In this document: piece after piece, positions 8,341 through 62,328 of the stretch
Position numbering within the stretch: the stretch's first letter is position 1
How the letters are laid out: every line of letters begins with the position of its first letter
Assembly: GCA_046482365.1 (NCBI GenBank)
Contig: JAWOFG010000182.1
Span: forward strand, 49,878-113,877
Direction: 5' to 3'
DNA: 64,000 nt
From: Pelovirga sp.
Lineage (GTDB): Bacteria > Desulfobacterota > Desulfuromonadia > Desulfuromonadales > Geopsychrobacteraceae
Translations under genes and position numbers: made by a program
The notes under the pieces: model-generated
Told to the model about the DNA's origin: nothing
Databases searched by the model: none
Seen by the model: the letters and a program-made list of their open reading frames with translations, nothing else

Positions 8341-8418
8341 AGCTCCTCCTTGATGTCAATATACATATAAGTATATATATGGCTTTGTTGGTTTTCAAGC
8401 TTTTTTTTTGGATAGTTT

Positions 8419-8565
8419 GTATCTGTTCAGCACCGGGCCTTTGGATCCTATGTCAAGGGACGCTTTTCGTCATCCATGACCGCTTGTTGTCGCCGTCCAT
8501 AGCGACAAACACCGTTGCCACAGGATCCAAAGGCCCTGCGCGAAGGACAGCAGCTGAATAATTAC
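8419..8565. mobile_element. MITE-like structured repeat, copy A (147 nt), flanked by 8-bp direct repeat GATAGTTT
   Basis: About 85 percent identical to 62141-62284. The ends form imperfect terminal inverted repeats (GTATCTGTTCAGC ... GCTGAATAATTAC). GATAGTTT occurs at 8411-8418 and again at 8566-8573. No coding capacity is supported. Confidence 0.6.
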
Positions 8566-8701
8566 GATAGTTTTTTTGTTCGGGTCAAAGAAAGCAGGTA
8601 GCCCGATCGTTTTTTTCCGAAACCTCCAAATTCAACCATGGACGAAAAGCCATTTTGATATATACTAACGCCGTTTTATTATTTCTCACAGGGAGGTTGT
8701 T

Positions 8702-9554: not shown

Positions 9555-10118
9555 ATGTCGAAAGGATTTATTGTTGTATTAGTAATTTTTTGTGCTCTGG
9601 TTTCATCCGCTCATGCCTTCGATGAGGAACTGGGCCAGATTGCCGGCATCAGCCGTACCTGCGCCGGTTGCCACGGCACTGATGGCGCTTCACCCGGGGC
9701 GATGATTCCTATCATTGGTGGCCAGATGGAGGGTTATCTGGCCGTGACGATGGAAGAGTTCGCTACAGATCAGCGCCCCGGCAGTGCCATGCTTAAATTT
9801 GCCAAAGGGTACTCGGCCGAGCAGCGGCGTGGCATCTCTGCCTATTTCGCTGCCAAGCCCTGGGTAAACAGCCCTTGGGCGGCACCTTCTTCTGCCCAGA
9901 ATCCGGATCTGGTTCGTGCCTGCACCGGTTGCCATGGCAGCAGTGGGGAGGGGCGCAATAATACCCCCCGTCTGGCCGGGCAGGCTCCTGAGTATCTTAA
10001 ACATGCTCTGCTTGAATATCAGCGTGGCGAGCGACCCGCTGCTACCATGCGTCTGATGCGGGCCTTTGATGAGGCAACTATCAAGCTGATGGCTGATCAC
10101 TTTTCCTCTTTAAAATAA
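9555..10118 (+). CDS. fccA: Diheme c-type cytochrome, flavocytochrome c sulfide dehydrogenase cytochrome subunit-like
   Basis: Has a signal peptide and two CxxCH haem motifs (CAGCHG, CTGCHG). It lies directly upstream of an FccB-like flavoprotein. Confidence 0.8.
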   Translation: MSKGFIVVLVIFCALVSSAHAFDEELGQIAGISRTCAGCHGTDGASPGAMIPIIGGQMEGYLAVTMEEFATDQRPGSAMLKFAKGYSAEQRRGISAYFAAKPWVNSPWAAPSSAQNPDLVRACTGCHGSSGEGRNNTPRLAGQAPEYLKHALLEYQRGERPAATMRLMRAFDEATIKLMADHFSSLK

Positions 10119-10128
10119 GGAGTAGAGC

Positions 10129-11397
10129 ATGAAACGTCGAGATTTCATCCGTTACACTGCGGTTGGCCTGGGGGCCTTATCCTTCGCTCCCACTATGTCC
10201 CTGGCTTCCTCCGGCGGTCGCAAACGGGTGGTCGTTGTTGGTGGGGGGTTCGGCGGGATGACGGCCGCCCGCTATCTCAAACGATTGAATCCAGCCCTTG
10301 AGGTGGTGTTGATTGAACGTAATGAAAAGTTCATTTCCTGTCCGATCAGCAACTGGGTCATGGTTGGCAAGTGGCCGATGTCAGACATCAGTTTTTCTTA
10401 TGAAAGTCTAGCCGGGCAGGGGATCAAGATTGTTCATGACGAAGTCACAGGTCTTGATGCGACTGCCGGCTACGTTCAGGGAAAGGCGGGAAAATATGTT
10501 TATGACCGGCTGGTTGTATCACCCGGGATCGATTTTCGTGACGAGTTGATTGAAGGCTACGATCAGCGCGCCAAGGATGCTTTTCCTCATGCCTGGCATG
10601 CCGGTCCGCAAACGCTGCAGCTGCAACAGGAACTTGCCGCCCTGCCTGCTGGTGGTACGGTGATGATGACGGTGCCGGCCAGTCCTTATCGCTGCCCCCC
10701 CGGCCCCTATGAGCGTGCCAGTCTGATCGCTGATTATCTGAAATTAAACAAGCCGGGGTCACGTTTGATCGTGGTTGACCCGCATCCACAAATTGCTTCG
10801 AAAGCTGCGTTGTTTCAGTCGGCCTGGGATGATTACTATCAGGATGTGATCGATTATCGTACCGAGCAGACAATCGTAGGAGTAGATATTGATAAGAAGA
10901 GTATCGTGACTCCGTCTGGTGACATTAGTGCTGATGTGATCAACCTGATTCCCAATCAGAAAGCCGGCGCCCTGGCTTTTGCTCTCGGGCTGGTCCCCGA
11001 GGATGAGTTGTGGGCACCGGTTAACCCCCGGACCCTCGAATCCAAGAGGATTCCAGGTGTTTATGTGATTGGTGATGCGACCGATGCCCGCACCAGTGGT
11101 CCGATGCCGAAATCAGGTTATGTCGCCAATTCCATGGGCAAGGTGGTTGCGGCTGCGATTGTTGCAGAGCTTGCCGGCAAGACAGCGCCGATTCCCTGGT
11201 TTGCCAACACCTGCTACAGCATGGTCAGCATGTCTGAAGCGATCTACATCACCGGGGTTTATCAGTATGATGCAGCGTTGGACACAACCATTACCATCAA
11301 TGAAGGCACCAAGGTTTCGACCGGACGTTCTGCTCTGTACGGTCGCTATGCCGAGGACTGGGGCCCGGCTATCTGGTCTGACATGATGGGGACATGA
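10129..11397 (+). CDS. fccB: Flavocytochrome c sulfide dehydrogenase flavoprotein subunit-like (FAD pyridine nucleotide-disulfide oxidoreductase)
   Basis: Carries a Tat signal (MKRRDFIRYTAVGLGALS), the FAD-binding motif VVVVGGGFGG and the CPPGPYERA redox-cysteine region typical of FCSD flavoproteins. Confidence 0.85.
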   Translation: MKRRDFIRYTAVGLGALSFAPTMSLASSGGRKRVVVVGGGFGGMTAARYLKRLNPALEVVLIERNEKFISCPISNWVMVGKWPMSDISFSYESLAGQGIKIVHDEVTGLDATAGYVQGKAGKYVYDRLVVSPGIDFRDELIEGYDQRAKDAFPHAWHAGPQTLQLQQELAALPAGGTVMMTVPASPYRCPPGPYERASLIADYLKLNKPGSRLIVVDPHPQIASKAALFQSAWDDYYQDVIDYRTEQTIVGVDIDKKSIVTPSGDISADVINLIPNQKAGALAFALGLVPEDELWAPVNPRTLESKRIPGVYVIGDATDARTSGPMPKSGYVANSMGKVVAAAIVAELAGKTAPIPWFANTCYSMVSMSEAIYITGVYQYDAALDTTITINEGTKVSTGRSALYGRYAEDWGPAIWSDMMGT

Positions 11398-11486: not shown

Positions 11487-11566
11487 GCTTCCGATAAGAG
11501 CAAACCCGGGGCGATCCGGGGACGCAAAGCCACGGGTCCCACGCGGACAGCCGGGTTGCCGAAGAG
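11487..11566 (+). promoter_or_regulatory. GEMM-I class cyclic-dinucleotide riboswitch aptamer (A at the Vc2 G20-equivalent position)
   Basis: The sequence AAGAGCAAACCCGGG-GCGA-UCCGGGGACGCAAAGCCACGGGUCC...GGACAGCCGGGUUGCCGAAG contains the GCAAAC element, a P2 helix capped by a GNRA tetraloop, the invariant GGGACGCAAAGCC core and the AGC-GGGUU-CC 3-prime element of c-di-GMP-I riboswitches. Confidence 0.8.
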
Positions 11567-57850: not shown

Positions 57851-58522
57851 TTAACGCGAAAAGCTGCGGTTTTTTTGCCGGGAAATTTTTCCAATAAGCC
57901 AGCCGCCCAAAAAGACACCGGCTCCGGCAAGAAACCACTGGATCATATTGGAGCGGTGAAAACTGCTATTTTCCTCACGTAGTATCTGGACTTCGCGGTT
58001 CAAAGATTGGTTTTGCTCTTCGAGGAGTTGGTTGTTTTCATGAAGAGTCAGGACATCGGCAGAGCTTTCGCGCAAGTTTTCGTACTGCTCGGTCATTTGT
58101 TTCAGCTTTGTTCGTGTTTCTTCCAACTGAACCACAAGGTTGGCAGTTTCTGCTGGGTCCTCATTAGCCTCTTGCAGTTCGGTATAACGCGTCTGCAGTT
58201 GTCGGTTCTCTTCTTCCAGGGCGGCAATTTGAGCTTGCAACTGTTCAATAATGAGCGTTTTCGGCGGTTCTGCAGTAATATATTGTTTAGCCACATAACC
58301 TTCTATTCCATCTGCGGTGCGTAGACGGTAAAAGTTTCCCTGCTCACCAAGAATAGTCACCGGGGCATTTGATGATAACCGCCCAAGGATCTGATAGTCA
58401 TTGGTGGTGTTGCTGCGCACCGTTACGAGCAGAGTGTCGGAAATATAGCGGGTTTCAGCCGTTGCTGGACCGGCAAGAAGTGCGGCCAGCAGGCTAACCA
58501 AAATTAGTATTTTAAACTTCAT
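57851..58522 (-). CDS. SH3-domain protein with coiled-coil and C-terminal TM anchor (YgiM/TIGR04211-like)
   Basis: Signal peptide, a bacterial SH3 domain (GNFYRLRTADGIEGYV), a long Q/E-rich coiled coil and a C-terminal TM segment. Confidence 0.8.
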   Translation of the reverse strand: MKFKILILVSLLAALLAGPATAETRYISDTLLVTVRSNTTNDYQILGRLSSNAPVTILGEQGNFYRLRTADGIEGYVAKQYITAEPPKTLIIEQLQAQIAALEEENRQLQTRYTELQEANEDPAETANLVVQLEETRTKLKQMTEQYENLRESSADVLTLHENNQLLEEQNQSLNREVQILREENSSFHRSNMIQWFLAGAGVFLGGWLIGKISRQKNRSFSR

Positions 58523-58623
58523 CGAGTCATCCTCTTGAAATGTGGGAGCATATAAAGATAGTTACTGATACTAACCCCAATGAAGGTGGAATTCAAGTTA
58601 CCTTCGAGCCGGCTCTACGACGT

Positions 58624-61317
58624 TCATAACCACAGGCGCGTAAGAAGCTTTTCTGTTTCAACGATAAGAAAAACCGCCATTCCAATTCCCAGAGGAATCA
58701 ACCATTGACCTGCCTCGAGGGGCGCCGAGCCGAACCATATCTGCATAAAGGGAGCATACACAAATAATAATTGAAAGCAGGCCAGAACCGCCACGGCCAC
58801 CCAAGCTGCCGGATTGGCCATGAGGCGACTGATTTTGAGACTGGTTCGTTTGAGATAGCGGCTGTTGAACAGATAAAATACCTGACCACAGACCAGGGTG
58901 TTGACTGCCAGAGTCCGAGCATATTCGAGGGAGGTTCCCTGGTTTCTTTCGTAAAGGAAAACCGCAATCGTTGCACCACCGATCAGCAACGAAACAGAAA
59001 TGATGCGCCAGACAAAAAATGCACCGAGAATCGATGTTCCCGGCTCTCGCGGAGGTCGTTCCATGACCCCCGGCTCTGCCGGTTCAAAGGCTAGAGCCAG
59101 GGCCAGGGTTACCGCTGTAACCATGTTGACCCAGAGGATCTGTACCGGGGTCAGGGGCAGGGCCAGCCCGAAAAGGATGGCCGTAAGGATGACCAGGGCT
59201 TCGGCACCGTTAGTGGGTAGAATGAACAGGATCGCTTTGCGCAGGTTATCGTAGATGGTGCGGCCTTCTTTGATGGCCTTTTCGATAGAGGTGAAGTTAT
59301 CGTCAGCAAGAACCACCTCGGCAGCTTCCTTGGTTGCTTCTGTTCCCTTGATTCCCATGGCAATGCCGACATCAGCGCGCTTCAGGGCGGGAGCATCGTT
59401 GACACCGTCACCAGTCATCGCCACCACGTCACCGCTTGACTGCAGAGCCTTGACCAGCCGCAGCTTATGTTCAGGGCTTGTGCGGGCGAAAATATTGTTG
59501 TCTCTGGCTATCTGGACCAGCTCCTGATCTGAAGCCTTTTCCAATTCGGTCCCGGTAGTGACCCGGTCTGCGTTTTTAATGCCCATTTCCCGGCCGATAG
59601 CAGCAGCGGTCCCGGCGTGGTCACCGGTGATCATTTTTACCTTGATACCGGCATCATGGCAGATCTTAATGGAGTTGATGGCTTCGGGGCGTGGCGGATC
59701 AATGATACCTACCAGTCCGAGAAAGGTTAAGTCAGAATCAAGGTCGCTCATTTCAAGGGTCTTTTGTCCCTCTTTAGCAGGACACGTGGCCGCCGCCAGA
59801 ACCCGCAGGCCCTCACCGCTTAACTGCTCGACCTGATCCAGCCAGAATTCACGATCAAGAGAATGATCGCCATTGGCGGTGCTGCGTTGGGAACTTGAAA
59901 GGTCGAGCAGTTGATCCGGCGCTCCCTTTATAAAGATCCTCAGTTCCCCGTCGGGAACACGGTTGAGGGTCGCCATGAACTTGTTTTGGGATTCAAACGG
60001 AACCGTGGCGATGCGCTCGTAGCTGTCCTCATCAAAATCAGTTTTGGCGGCCAGGGTACGAAGCGACCCTTCTGTTGGTTCCCCTCGAACTTGCCACTGT
60101 CCGTCTTTCTCAACGATCTGTGAATCGTTACAGATTGCCATGGCCTCAATCAAGTTAAAAAGATCCTGATGCTCTTTCAGCCTGACCGGGTCATCCTCCC
60201 GGATAACTTCGCCCTCCGGGGCATAGCCGGTACCACTGACATCGTAGCTGTTGTCGACCACGACCAGACGACGGGCCGTCATCTCGTTGCGGGTCAGGGT
60301 GCCGGTTTTGTCCGCGCAGATAACCGTCACCGAGCCCAACGTCTCGATGGCATTAAGTTTGCGGGTAATGGCGTTAAGCCGGGCCATGCGTTGGACCCCG
60401 AGGGCGAGGGTGATGGTGAAGATGGCGGGCAGACCTTCCGGTATAGCGGCAACACCGAAGCCGATGGCTGACATAAAGAGCTCACCAACTGTATATTCAT
60501 GAAAAAACCAGCCGATAAACCAGATGCTTACAGCCATGCCGATAATAACTATCGACAAGCGTTTGCCAAAGGTATCCATCTGGCGGGTCAGGGGGGTGGC
60601 GATTTTTTCAACCTCGGCAATCATTGTGTTGATGCGGCCGATTTCGGTGTTCAGGCCGGTTGCGGTAATGACGCCGATGCCACGACCGGTGGTAACCATG
60701 GTGCCGGAAAAGGCCATTCCTTTGCGATCGCCGATACCAGCGTCGGCAGCGACCACTGAGGTGGATTTATCAACTGCCATCGACTCACCGGTCAGGGCCG
60801 ACTCTTCAATTTGCAGGTGGGTCGTTTCAATCAGACGCATATCAGCAGGCACGCGGTTGCCGGAACGTAACTTGACACGATCGCCGGGTACCAGCTCTTC
60901 AGCATCGACTTCGACCCACTGATCATCGCGTAAAACCTGAGCCTGGAGTGAGAGCATCTTGCGAATCCCTTCAAGAGCCTCCTCGGCCTTGCCTTCCTGG
61001 ATAAAGCCAATCGTTGCATTGATAATCACTACAGCGAGAATAACGCCGGTATCAATCCAGTGTTCAAGAAGCGCAGTCAACACCGCCGCTGCGAGCAACA
61101 CGTAGATCAGCAGATCATGAAAGTGGATAAAAAAGCGCTTTAAAATTCCGTCTTTTTCCGCAGCCGGAAGGCGGTTGTGACCAACCGCTTCGAGTCGTTT
61201 TTCTGCTTCAGCAGAACTCAGTCCCTTGGCTGGACTGTCAAGCTGCTTGATGATCTCATCGGTGTCGATGTGGTGGGGATTGCTGGTGCTGTAAGGTGTC
61301 TTTTGTTCTGATGACAT
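58624..61317 (-). CDS. Cation-transporting P-type ATPase (P2-type, Ca2+/Mg2+-ATPase-like)
   Basis: An 897-aa protein with TGES, ICADKTGTLT, KGAPD, MITGDH and MTGDGVNDAPALK motifs and a 10-TM layout. Confidence 0.95.
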   Translation of the reverse strand: MSSEQKTPYSTSNPHHIDTDEIIKQLDSPAKGLSSAEAEKRLEAVGHNRLPAAEKDGILKRFFIHFHDLLIYVLLAAAVLTALLEHWIDTGVILAVVIINATIGFIQEGKAEEALEGIRKMLSLQAQVLRDDQWVEVDAEELVPGDRVKLRSGNRVPADMRLIETTHLQIEESALTGESMAVDKSTSVVAADAGIGDRKGMAFSGTMVTTGRGIGVITATGLNTEIGRINTMIAEVEKIATPLTRQMDTFGKRLSIVIIGMAVSIWFIGWFFHEYTVGELFMSAIGFGVAAIPEGLPAIFTITLALGVQRMARLNAITRKLNAIETLGSVTVICADKTGTLTRNEMTARRLVVVDNSYDVSGTGYAPEGEVIREDDPVRLKEHQDLFNLIEAMAICNDSQIVEKDGQWQVRGEPTEGSLRTLAAKTDFDEDSYERIATVPFESQNKFMATLNRVPDGELRIFIKGAPDQLLDLSSSQRSTANGDHSLDREFWLDQVEQLSGEGLRVLAAATCPAKEGQKTLEMSDLDSDLTFLGLVGIIDPPRPEAINSIKICHDAGIKVKMITGDHAGTAAAIGREMGIKNADRVTTGTELEKASDQELVQIARDNNIFARTSPEHKLRLVKALQSSGDVVAMTGDGVNDAPALKRADVGIAMGIKGTEATKEAAEVVLADDNFTSIEKAIKEGRTIYDNLRKAILFILPTNGAEALVILTAILFGLALPLTPVQILWVNMVTAVTLALALAFEPAEPGVMERPPREPGTSILGAFFVWRIISVSLLIGGATIAVFLYERNQGTSLEYARTLAVNTLVCGQVFYLFNSRYLKRTSLKISRLMANPAAWVAVAVLACFQLLFVYAPFMQIWFGSAPLEAGQWLIPLGIGMAVFLIVETEKLLTRLWL

Positions 61318-61988: not shown

Positions 61989-62140
61989 GATGACAGTGTC
62001 CTTAATCGTTACAAAAAACAGGTTTGAATTCACTATACTCTCGCATGCAGAAGGTTTTGCTGACAAGGGTTAGGATGGTGAAATTACAGACTTACTTTGA
62101 CAGCGTGAGTTCAGCAGACTATCTTTGATTACGAAAAATT

Positions 62141-62284
62141 GTATCTGTTCAGCACCGGATCGGGGTTCCTATGTCAAGGGACGCATTTTCGTCATCCCTG
62201 ACCGCTTGTTGTCGCCGTCCATGGCGACAAACACCGTTGCCACAGCAACACCGATCCTGCACAAGGACAGTGGTGAATAGTTAC
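62141..62284. mobile_element. MITE-like structured repeat, copy B (144 nt), flanked by 8-bp direct repeat GAAAAATT
   Basis: Homologous to 8419-8565. GAAAAATT occurs at 62133-62140 and again at 62285-62292. It lies in a divergent intergenic region. Confidence 0.6.
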
Positions 62285-62328
62285 GAAAAATTTAAGTAAT
62301 GGAATGGATCACATAGAAGGGAAGCTTT

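Follow-up and report, generated by a model that had tools for sequence, protein, structure and literature searches.

A mobile inverted-repeat element family with IS66-like ends and a structured two-hairpin interior in Pelovirga and related genomes

The stretch analysed here, called the window below, comprises 64,000 nucleotides of Pelovirga sp. (assembly GCA_046482365.1, contig JAWOFG010000182.1, positions 49,878 to 113,877 of the forward strand). It holds two copies, A and B, of a small non-coding element, and these are members of a recently active family of MITEs (miniature inverted-repeat transposable elements), an assignment that is well supported. How is such an element moved, and what does it carry? 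The explanation we prefer, with a probability of about 70%, is that it is a non-autonomous MITE moved by a transposase of the IS66 family, ISBst12 group, and that its interior is a two-hairpin cargo selected as a single strand, most likely as a protein-binding RNA. The ends and flanks of the two copies are laid out as follows, in window positions.

8411..8418, no strand: left target-site duplication of copy A, 8 bp, GATAGTTT
8419..8565, minus strand (that of the AYGGAY-type structure): MITE copy A, 147 bp, covariance-model score 146 bits
8419..8431, no strand: left terminal inverted repeat ('GTATC' type) of copy A, GTATCTGTTCAGC
8553..8565, no strand: right terminal inverted repeat of copy A, 'GTAAC' type, GCTGAATAATTAC (reverse complement GTAATTATTCAGC; family consensus GTAACTATTCAGC)
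8566..8573, no strand: right target-site duplication of copy A, exact GATAGTTT
62133..62140, no strand: left target-site duplication of copy B, GAAAAATT
62141..62284, minus strand: MITE copy B, 144 bp, covariance-model score 130 bits
62141-62153 and 62272-62284: ends of copy B, GTATCTGTTCAGC and GGTGAATAGTTAC
62285..62292, no strand: right target-site duplication of copy B, exact GAAAAATT

The first-pass annotation, made from the letters alone, had described the repeat, its ends and the exact 8-bp direct repeat around copy A, and all of this was borne out on re-reading the sequence. Copy B is also bracketed by an exact duplication, which had gone unmentioned. The family ends are GTATCTGTTCAGC and the reverse complement of GTAAYTATTCAGC, and both window copies carry them as imperfect inverted repeats of 13 bp. 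Over the central 60 nt the two copies are 97% identical. With up to three mismatches allowed, a 25-nt probe of the core matched only copies A and B in the window, where shuffles give an expectation of 0, and the covariance model likewise found only these two there.

The family extends well beyond the window. Copies were searched with a 22-nt probe of the apical core (hairpin 1, described below), with one genome per species. The probe matched at least 98 blocks in at least 12 assemblies, all of them Desulfuromonadales-like among the matches listed. Among these matches the metagenome-assembled genomes (MAGs) KA08 and M55B183 account for at least 35 and at least 19 blocks, and the isolate Pelovirga terrestris M08fum for at least 17 copy-bearing blocks, while the remaining 27 are spread over nine other assemblies. 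Within the 98 blocks listed the covariance model finds about 125 copies. Element sizes range from 128 to 168 bp with two main classes of about 144 and 156 bp. Both ends are present in 89 of the 103 seeded copies, and the octamers flanking these 89 are identical at 8/8 positions in 34 copies and at 7/8 in 21, that is, in 55 copies together; control octamers shifted outward by 8 bp never match at more than 6/8. The exact duplications are 72% A+T, compared with 48% in the surrounding DNA, and 86 of the 89 copies are intergenic. The element was found neither in the plasmid collection nor in the phage collection.

Did the element move recently? P. terrestris, the closest relative, has a homologue, with 98% identity, of the crotonase gene beside copy A, and the orthologous intergenic region of that species (…TTTTTTTGATCGTTTCTTTGTTCGGG…) contains no element and a single octamer (GATCGTTT). 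In a blastn comparison the flanks of copy A, 87-89% identical between the two organisms, are directly adjacent in P. terrestris M08fum (locus L099, 2363|2364), and the window has 157 extra bases at this point. Copy A was therefore inserted after the split of the two species. The single open reading frame (ORF) that lies over copy A, of 60 aa (8379-8561), was rejected as a gene, because its start lies in the flank and the ORF is absent at the empty site. Copy B, in turn, has an orthologue in P. terrestris (L005:4462-4605) with 96.5% identity. This conservation, higher than that of the flanks, was considered as evidence of constraint and rejected, because the adjacent 45-60 nt are also 100% identical. 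As side observations, the divergence of the window from P. terrestris is very uneven: it ranges over 86-100% identity around copy B, the crotonase protein stands at 98%, and window positions 57865-61281 are only 79% identical to L005:1-3427.

Thus the family has terminal inverted repeats, a duplication of fixed length, a small non-coding body, and many copies with presence/absence polymorphism. The proposal of the first-pass annotation that the element is a non-autonomous transposable element is supported by the many copies in relatives, the 8-bp duplications over 89 copies, the empty orthologous site at copy A and the IS66/ISBst12-type ends discussed below. Could the copies instead be an immobile family of small RNA (sRNA) or cis-regulatory genes of the host, akin to the Rfam family TwoAYGGAY, with flanking repeats that are coincidental? 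The sequence is indeed structured, covarying and intergenic, and there is a weak Rfam match. This explanation is nevertheless highly improbable, since 55 of 89 copies have octamers matching at 7-8/8 positions and none do so in the control, the orthologous site is empty, the ends are identical to insertion sequence (IS) ends, dozens of copies per genome lie beside unrelated genes, and neither promoter nor terminator is seen.

The copies also show rearrangements, which are described here as side observations. Head-to-tail arrays occur with three copies in L062:2781-3248 and two in L085:2700-3012, spaced by 8-24 bp, and the L062 array has the same octamer-like spacer (…AAATAATG) between its copies. 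Core-less mini-derivatives of 37-65 bp that keep both ends were found at L091:2047-2110, L090:4227-4270 and L038:121-157, two of the three with flanking octamers still matching at 7-8/8. In L007:1185-1328, L095:6508-6650 and L097:1337-1472 the interior (the stem and the two-hairpin tip) is inverted with respect to the asymmetric ends and the 8-bp duplications are exact, and both sides of L056:6976-7143 carry the 'GTAAC-type' end with its spacer. The inverted interiors and the doubled GTAAC end suggest recombination between the stem arms. Another sequence that resembles the MITE end is a tandem 14-nt unit (GGTCACTGTTCACC) that decays to a 7-nt unit (GGTCACT) in L010:6807-6900 of MAG KA08.

Which transposase family do the ends point to? 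ISDge4 of Deinococcus geothermalis, which belongs to the IS66 family and there to the single-ORF ISBst12 group, has the ends GTGACTACTCAGCA / GTAACTGCTCAGCA and an 8-bp direct repeat (PMC12898284), and another paper gives GTAA… ends with 8-bp repeats as the hallmark of the IS66 family. A further example is found on plasmid pHTA426 of Geobacillus kaustophilus, in which a gene annotated as 'IS66-like element ISGka4 family transposase' (Pfam DDE_Tnp_IS66 at 1.9e-64, with zf-IS66 and DUF6444) lies in an IS with the ends GTAACTATTCAGC on the gene-start side and GTATCTATTCAGC on the other, flanked on both sides by the 8-bp duplication GACGAGTT. It is the sole IS66/ISBst12 copy listed for that plasmid (PMC8024623). 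Its GTAACTATTCAGC agrees with the MITE consensus at 13/13 positions and its GTATCTATTCAGC with GTATCTGTTCAGC at 12/13, and the asymmetry of a GTAAC and a GTATC end is alike in both elements. An IS66-type IS of Bacillus thuringiensis has perfect GTAACTACTCAGC ends, and a relative in Octadecabacter has GTAACTCCCAAGC ends with an exact 8-bp duplication; some MITE copies bear exactly the GTAACTACTCAGC and GTAACTGCTCAGC end variants. What is more, MAG KA08 contains a second, unrelated MITE of about 150 bp (L008:5200-5351, minus strand) with the ends GTAACTATTCAGC … CTGAATAATCAC, its own internal hairpin and an exact 8-bp duplication CTATAATT, and its terminal 24-mer was found nowhere else in the genome collection. 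The same ends on an unrelated interior indicate that the ends work as a module independent of what lies between them. The search for a parent IS by ends and duplication length, which the first-pass annotation had suggested, thus leads to the ISBst12 group of the IS66 family, and by sequence likeness the assignment of the ends to this group is supported. The GTAA ends and the 8-bp repeat are those of the group and a transposase gene is missing; the MITE, having no coding capacity, cannot be an IS and must be a non-autonomous derivative or passenger. It also differs from ISBst12-group IS in size (about 145 bp without a transposase gene, against about 1.6 kb), and its interior is unrelated to the pHTA426 IS, as the covariance model finds nothing on pHTA426.

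The transposase itself was searched for in several ways. In the window, tblastn with the pHTA426 transposase and a scan for IS66 motifs both gave none, in agreement with the first-pass annotation. Nor was an IS66-type transposase found by tblastn with the same query in the 1.25 Mb of fetched loci (best E 0.7), so that the partner in MITE-bearing genomes is so far unseen. The scan of all fetched DNA with canonical TnpC motifs of IS66, ill-fitting for the ISBst12 group, gave none, and an all-against-all blastn of the fetched loci gave orthologous matches only and no partner element. Among the plasmids, tblastn with the transposase gave relatives in 190 records, none of them from Desulfuromonadales. 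In the mechanism we propose, mobilisation would occur in trans by a resident transposase: a single-ORF DDE enzyme of the ISBst12 group would act on the 13-bp ends (GTAACTATTCAGC and, opposite to it, GTATCTGTTCAGC) and insert the element into AT-rich intergenic octamers, which would then be duplicated. The autonomous partner would be expected to measure about 1.5-1.7 kb, with GTAWCTRTTCAGC ends and 8-bp duplications.

The strongly palindromic, multicopy and intergenic character of the element could also recall repetitive extragenic palindromes (REP) and their mosaics (BIME), or palindromic elements of the IS200/IS605 type, moved by an HUH (Y1) transposase or a REP-associated transposase (RAYT). 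REP/BIME and IS200/IS605-type elements are not known to have fixed-length target duplications or terminal inverted repeats of this kind. With an 8-bp duplication and IS66-type ends observed, we regard such an origin as scarcely credible. Closer in general character are the Correia elements of Neisseria, the enterobacterial ERIC/IRU and the pneumococcal RUP, which are long-hairpin MITEs that measure 100-200 bp, code for nothing and have both terminal inverted repeats and target duplications. They are present in dozens to hundreds of intergenic copies, and their self-complementarity can act at the RNA level if they are co-transcribed. The present MITE differs from them in its transposase family, in the length of its duplication (8 bp, IS66 type) and in a sequence-conserved tip of two hairpins with GGA loops.

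The interior of the element is described next, with the copies aligned in minus-strand orientation. In the window its parts are located as follows.

8433..8459: copy A, 3' arm of the long P1/P2 stem as read on the minus strand (from the structure, pair counts and RNAalifold)
8512..8538: copy A, 5' arm of the long P1/P2 stem as read on the minus strand, including the GGATCCAAAGGCCC arm quoted in the first-pass annotation
8487..8508, minus strand: hairpin 1 of copy A, UUGUCGCU-AUGGAC-GGCGACAA, the 'apical module' of the first-pass annotation
8469..8480, minus strand: hairpin 2 of copy A, GUC-AUGGAU-GAC (from covariation and the loop A-N-GGA-U)
62209-62230 and 62191-62202, minus strand: hairpin 1 and hairpin 2 of copy B

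On the minus strand the order is the GTAAC-type end, a spacer of 13-16 nt, the long stem, the two-hairpin junction, a variable bulge and the GTATC-type end. The long stem has about 27 pairs, comprising the variable P1 followed by P2 (GCAAGGG/CCCUUGA), in which a G·A mismatch and a G·U are conserved. Hairpin 1 of the family is UUGUCGCC-AUGGAC-GGCGACAA; hairpin 2 is GUC-AUGGAU-GAC and, in divergent sub-families, CCC-AUGGAU-GGG, a case of covariation. The bulge is either GAAAA or a 16-nt insert, which gives the size class of about 156 bp. Both window copies fold far better than shuffles on either strand, with z = -6.4 on the plus and -7.0 on the minus strand for copy A and z = -3.9 and -3.5, respectively, for copy B. 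In the P2 arm (…CACCGTTGCC…), at window positions 8514 and 62236, both copies have a private change on the minus strand, AAGGG to AACGG, that breaks one P2 pair; it occurs neither in the P. terrestris orthologue of copy B nor in any other full copy, which hints at gene conversion between the two copies within the genome.

Is the pairing kept while the sequence changes? In the proposed structure 88.9% of the cells are paired, compared with 33-53% when the partners are slid, and 27 pairs have changes on both sides. The covariation score is 0.198, against 0.115 for shuffled and at most 0.061 for slid alignments, a shuffle-based statistic that is inflated because the copies are related. RNAalifold gives P1, hairpin 1 and hairpin 2 independently. 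The arms of the stem are complementary in at least eight unrelated sequences, for example TGAGTTGGCTGTGC/GCATTGCCAACTCT and TGTGCTGGGAACCC/GGGTTGCTAGCACA, and 43 of the 89 copies have 0-1 mismatches in the 14 variable pairs. In hairpin 1, copies that were not seed-matched show a single compensatory change, the outer U-A to C-G. Hence the long stem and hairpin 2 are shown to covary across sub-families. The first-pass annotation had reported a perfect 14-bp stem in copy A that was completely replaced, with full compensation, in copy B. The perfect stem of copy A stands, and the full compensatory replacement was overstated: in the copy B arms GGATCGGGGTTCC / GCAACACCGATCC some 10-11 of 13 positions pair. 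These arms have the outer GG..CC in common with copy A, and so they represent another arm type, with complementarity that is extensive but incomplete.

Wobble pairs bear on which strand is constrained, as an A·C on the minus strand is a G·U on the plus strand. In P1 the ratio of G·U to A·C on the minus strand is 174:40 for unique arm combinations, 119:40 without the constant G·U column, 85:8 in well-paired copies and 31:5 in the divergent sub-families. A double-stranded cruciform or correction from arm to arm would give no such bias, and the constraint therefore acts on a single strand. This strand is probably selected as RNA, or less likely as one of the DNA strands. The selection on RNA or single-stranded DNA structure that the first-pass annotation had suggested is thus supported, both by the covarying long stem and hairpin 2 and by the strand-biased G·U, and neither of the two outcomes that the first-pass annotation regarded as refuting came about. 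Judging from the asymmetry of the ends, the AYGGAY strand corresponds to the transposase sense strand of the pHTA426 IS. We propose that the geneless interior, a foldback stem of about 27 bp, a small junction and two hairpins with A-N-GGA-Y loops on the minus strand, would be selected in its single-stranded minus-strand form, most likely RNA made by read-through or from the GTAAC end. It would then most likely serve as a two-site platform for a dimeric RNA-binding protein, for which CsrA is the best candidate.

The TwoAYGGAY motif was described by Weinberg et al. 2010, and its closing stem is often very large. The corresponding Rfam model (RF01731) aligns with the minus strand end to end, with both loops aligned, with 22 bits for the window and 31.4 bits for L016, scores that are below the gathering score of 43 bits and, with E-values of 0.3-0.6, non-significant alone. 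On the minus strand no other Rfam family gives an end-to-end alignment in which the loops match, and at the gathering threshold no Rfam family matches at the element. Both structures have a long closing stem (a large P1), an inner stem and two hairpins with AYGGAY loops, AUGGAC and AUGGAU in the MITE, closed by C-G. They differ in taxa (Clostridia, gamma-proteobacteria and human gut for TwoAYGGAY, Desulfuromonadales for the MITE) and at loop position 2, which is Y in TwoAYGGAY but N in the MITE (G/C/A in 24 copies, loop 2). The match is a resemblance of architecture and not membership. Among the seed sequences of TwoAYGGAY (alignment in the supplement of PMC2864571), those from Psychromonas ingrahamii and human gut are multicopy and lie inside long inverted repeats; these reach at least 60 nt to either side, and divergence of the flanks sets in at fixed points. 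The known motif itself may thus sit on mobile foldback repeats, whose ends look different in the gut and in Psychromonas from the defined transposon ends of the MITE. The outer stem of the Rfam model (…AGAUAC / GUAUC…) was considered as an IS66-like end and rejected, as its polarity is opposite to that of the terminal repeat.

TwoAYGGAY has been proposed to bind CsrA (Gardner & Eldai 2015; PMC4333381). In Geobacter sulfurreducens CsrA is functional, and RNA antagonists are not established (PMC11934962). In hairpin 2 of the MITE, the loop C-A-N-GGA-U-G has U at N in 86 copies, G in 17, C in 6 and A in 1, with GGA, the best-conserved part of the loops, nearly invariant, and this pattern of variation is that expected for an A-N-GGA site. 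The distance between the two GGA sites, about 23 nt, would suit a single CsrA dimer. GGA in hairpin loops (A-N-GGA) is also common to the sRNAs CsrB, RsmY and RsmZ; the MITE differs from these in having two sites per unit only, in being mobile and multicopy, and in that no promoter or terminator of its own was found, so that it is not an independent transcription unit of the CsrB/Rsm type. That a protein such as CsrA binds the module is a tentative proposal that, taken on its own, is more likely wrong than right.

Several observations weigh against the preferred explanation, beside the inflated covariation statistics, the low Rfam scores and the unseen transposase given above. At least three mismatches in the variable stem are present in 31 of the 89 copies (about 35%), which means that many copies do not keep the structure; most of these poorly paired copies come from KA08 and P. 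terrestris and combine different arm types by recombination. The loop AUGGAC of hairpin 1 is found in 114 of 124 copies, and this invariance carries no weight because hairpin 1 was the search seed; a scan of the collection for copies with an altered second pair in hairpin 1, the loops and P2 being kept, returned 0. No promoter-like or terminator-like site of the element was seen at copy A, nor on the AYGGAY strand at copy B. Copy A lies between divergent promoter-like sites, one for an fmdB-like gene (8398-8370, minus) and one for the crotonase gene (8655-8682, plus), and copy B is downstream of a plus-strand promoter-like site (62097-62125) that would transcribe the complement of the AYGGAY strand. 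Of the copies with co-directional genes on either side, 14 have the AYGGAY strand in sense and 27 in antisense orientation. Moreover, G·T wobble is tolerated in DNA hairpins too, and no csrA was found in the fetched DNA, a small part of these genomes.

Then could the element be a plain foldback MITE with no RNA function? In such an element the hairpin would aid transposition by bringing the ends together in single-stranded DNA, or the arms would correct each other by template switching or gene conversion, and the conserved tip would reflect recent common ancestry together with the needs of the transposition machinery or of a DNA structure. All hallmarks of a MITE are present, the copies show no preferred orientation relative to neighbouring genes and no promoter, one third of the copies have chimeric, mismatched arms, and the stem of hairpin 1 is invariant in sequence. 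The flipped interiors of three copies (L007, L095 and L097) are what arm recombination would give, and the core-less deletion derivatives have kept ends and flanking octamers. However, arm correction or a cruciform predicts Watson-Crick pairs without bias, and what is seen is an excess of G·U over A·C of about 4:1 to 10:1 on one strand. Sub-families without common arm sequence keep the same loops and junction, and within the loops it is precisely the N of A-N-GGA that varies most. The unrelated L008 MITE, in addition, has the same ends without the module, so the module is not needed for end recognition. On balance we consider a plain MITE unlikely, yet it is the one alternative that deserves serious attention. 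A protein-binding RNA of the CsrA type is ranked first for the interior, and a hairpin acting at the DNA level or related to transposition second.

What would follow if the cargo reading is right? Tens to hundreds of copies in promoters and untranslated regions would spread high-affinity sites for CsrA or another dimeric RNA-binding protein, and these sites would form a dispersed sponge or bring neighbouring transcripts under that regulator. A structured motif like TwoAYGGAY, of unknown function since 2010, is now tied to mobile DNA. The MITE would thus be a mobile carrier of a protein-binding module with dual GGA hairpins of the TwoAYGGAY type, and by extension the orphan motif elsewhere, in Clostridia, Psychromonas and gut metagenomes, would in general be cargo of foldback elements; this picture as a whole, sponge and carrier included, is speculative and we hold it to be rather doubtful. 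Literature searches gave no description of this Desulfuromonadales MITE family nor of any MITE on IS66/ISBst12-type ends. P. terrestris M08fum is a cultured isolate from which the window organism differs by a natural insertion, and the transcription of the module, any binding of CsrA by it and its bearing on transposition are therefore directly testable. For annotation, units of about 145 bp should be masked as repeats, and they should be weighed in promoter regions such as that between fmdB and crotonase.

One minor observation concerns another part of the window. A c-di-GMP-I-GGC riboswitch aptamer (RF03167) is found at window positions 11490-11564 on the plus strand, with 64.4 bits against a gathering score of 59, and it lies just downstream of ORFs that resemble flavocytochrome c/sulfide dehydrogenase (9555-11397).

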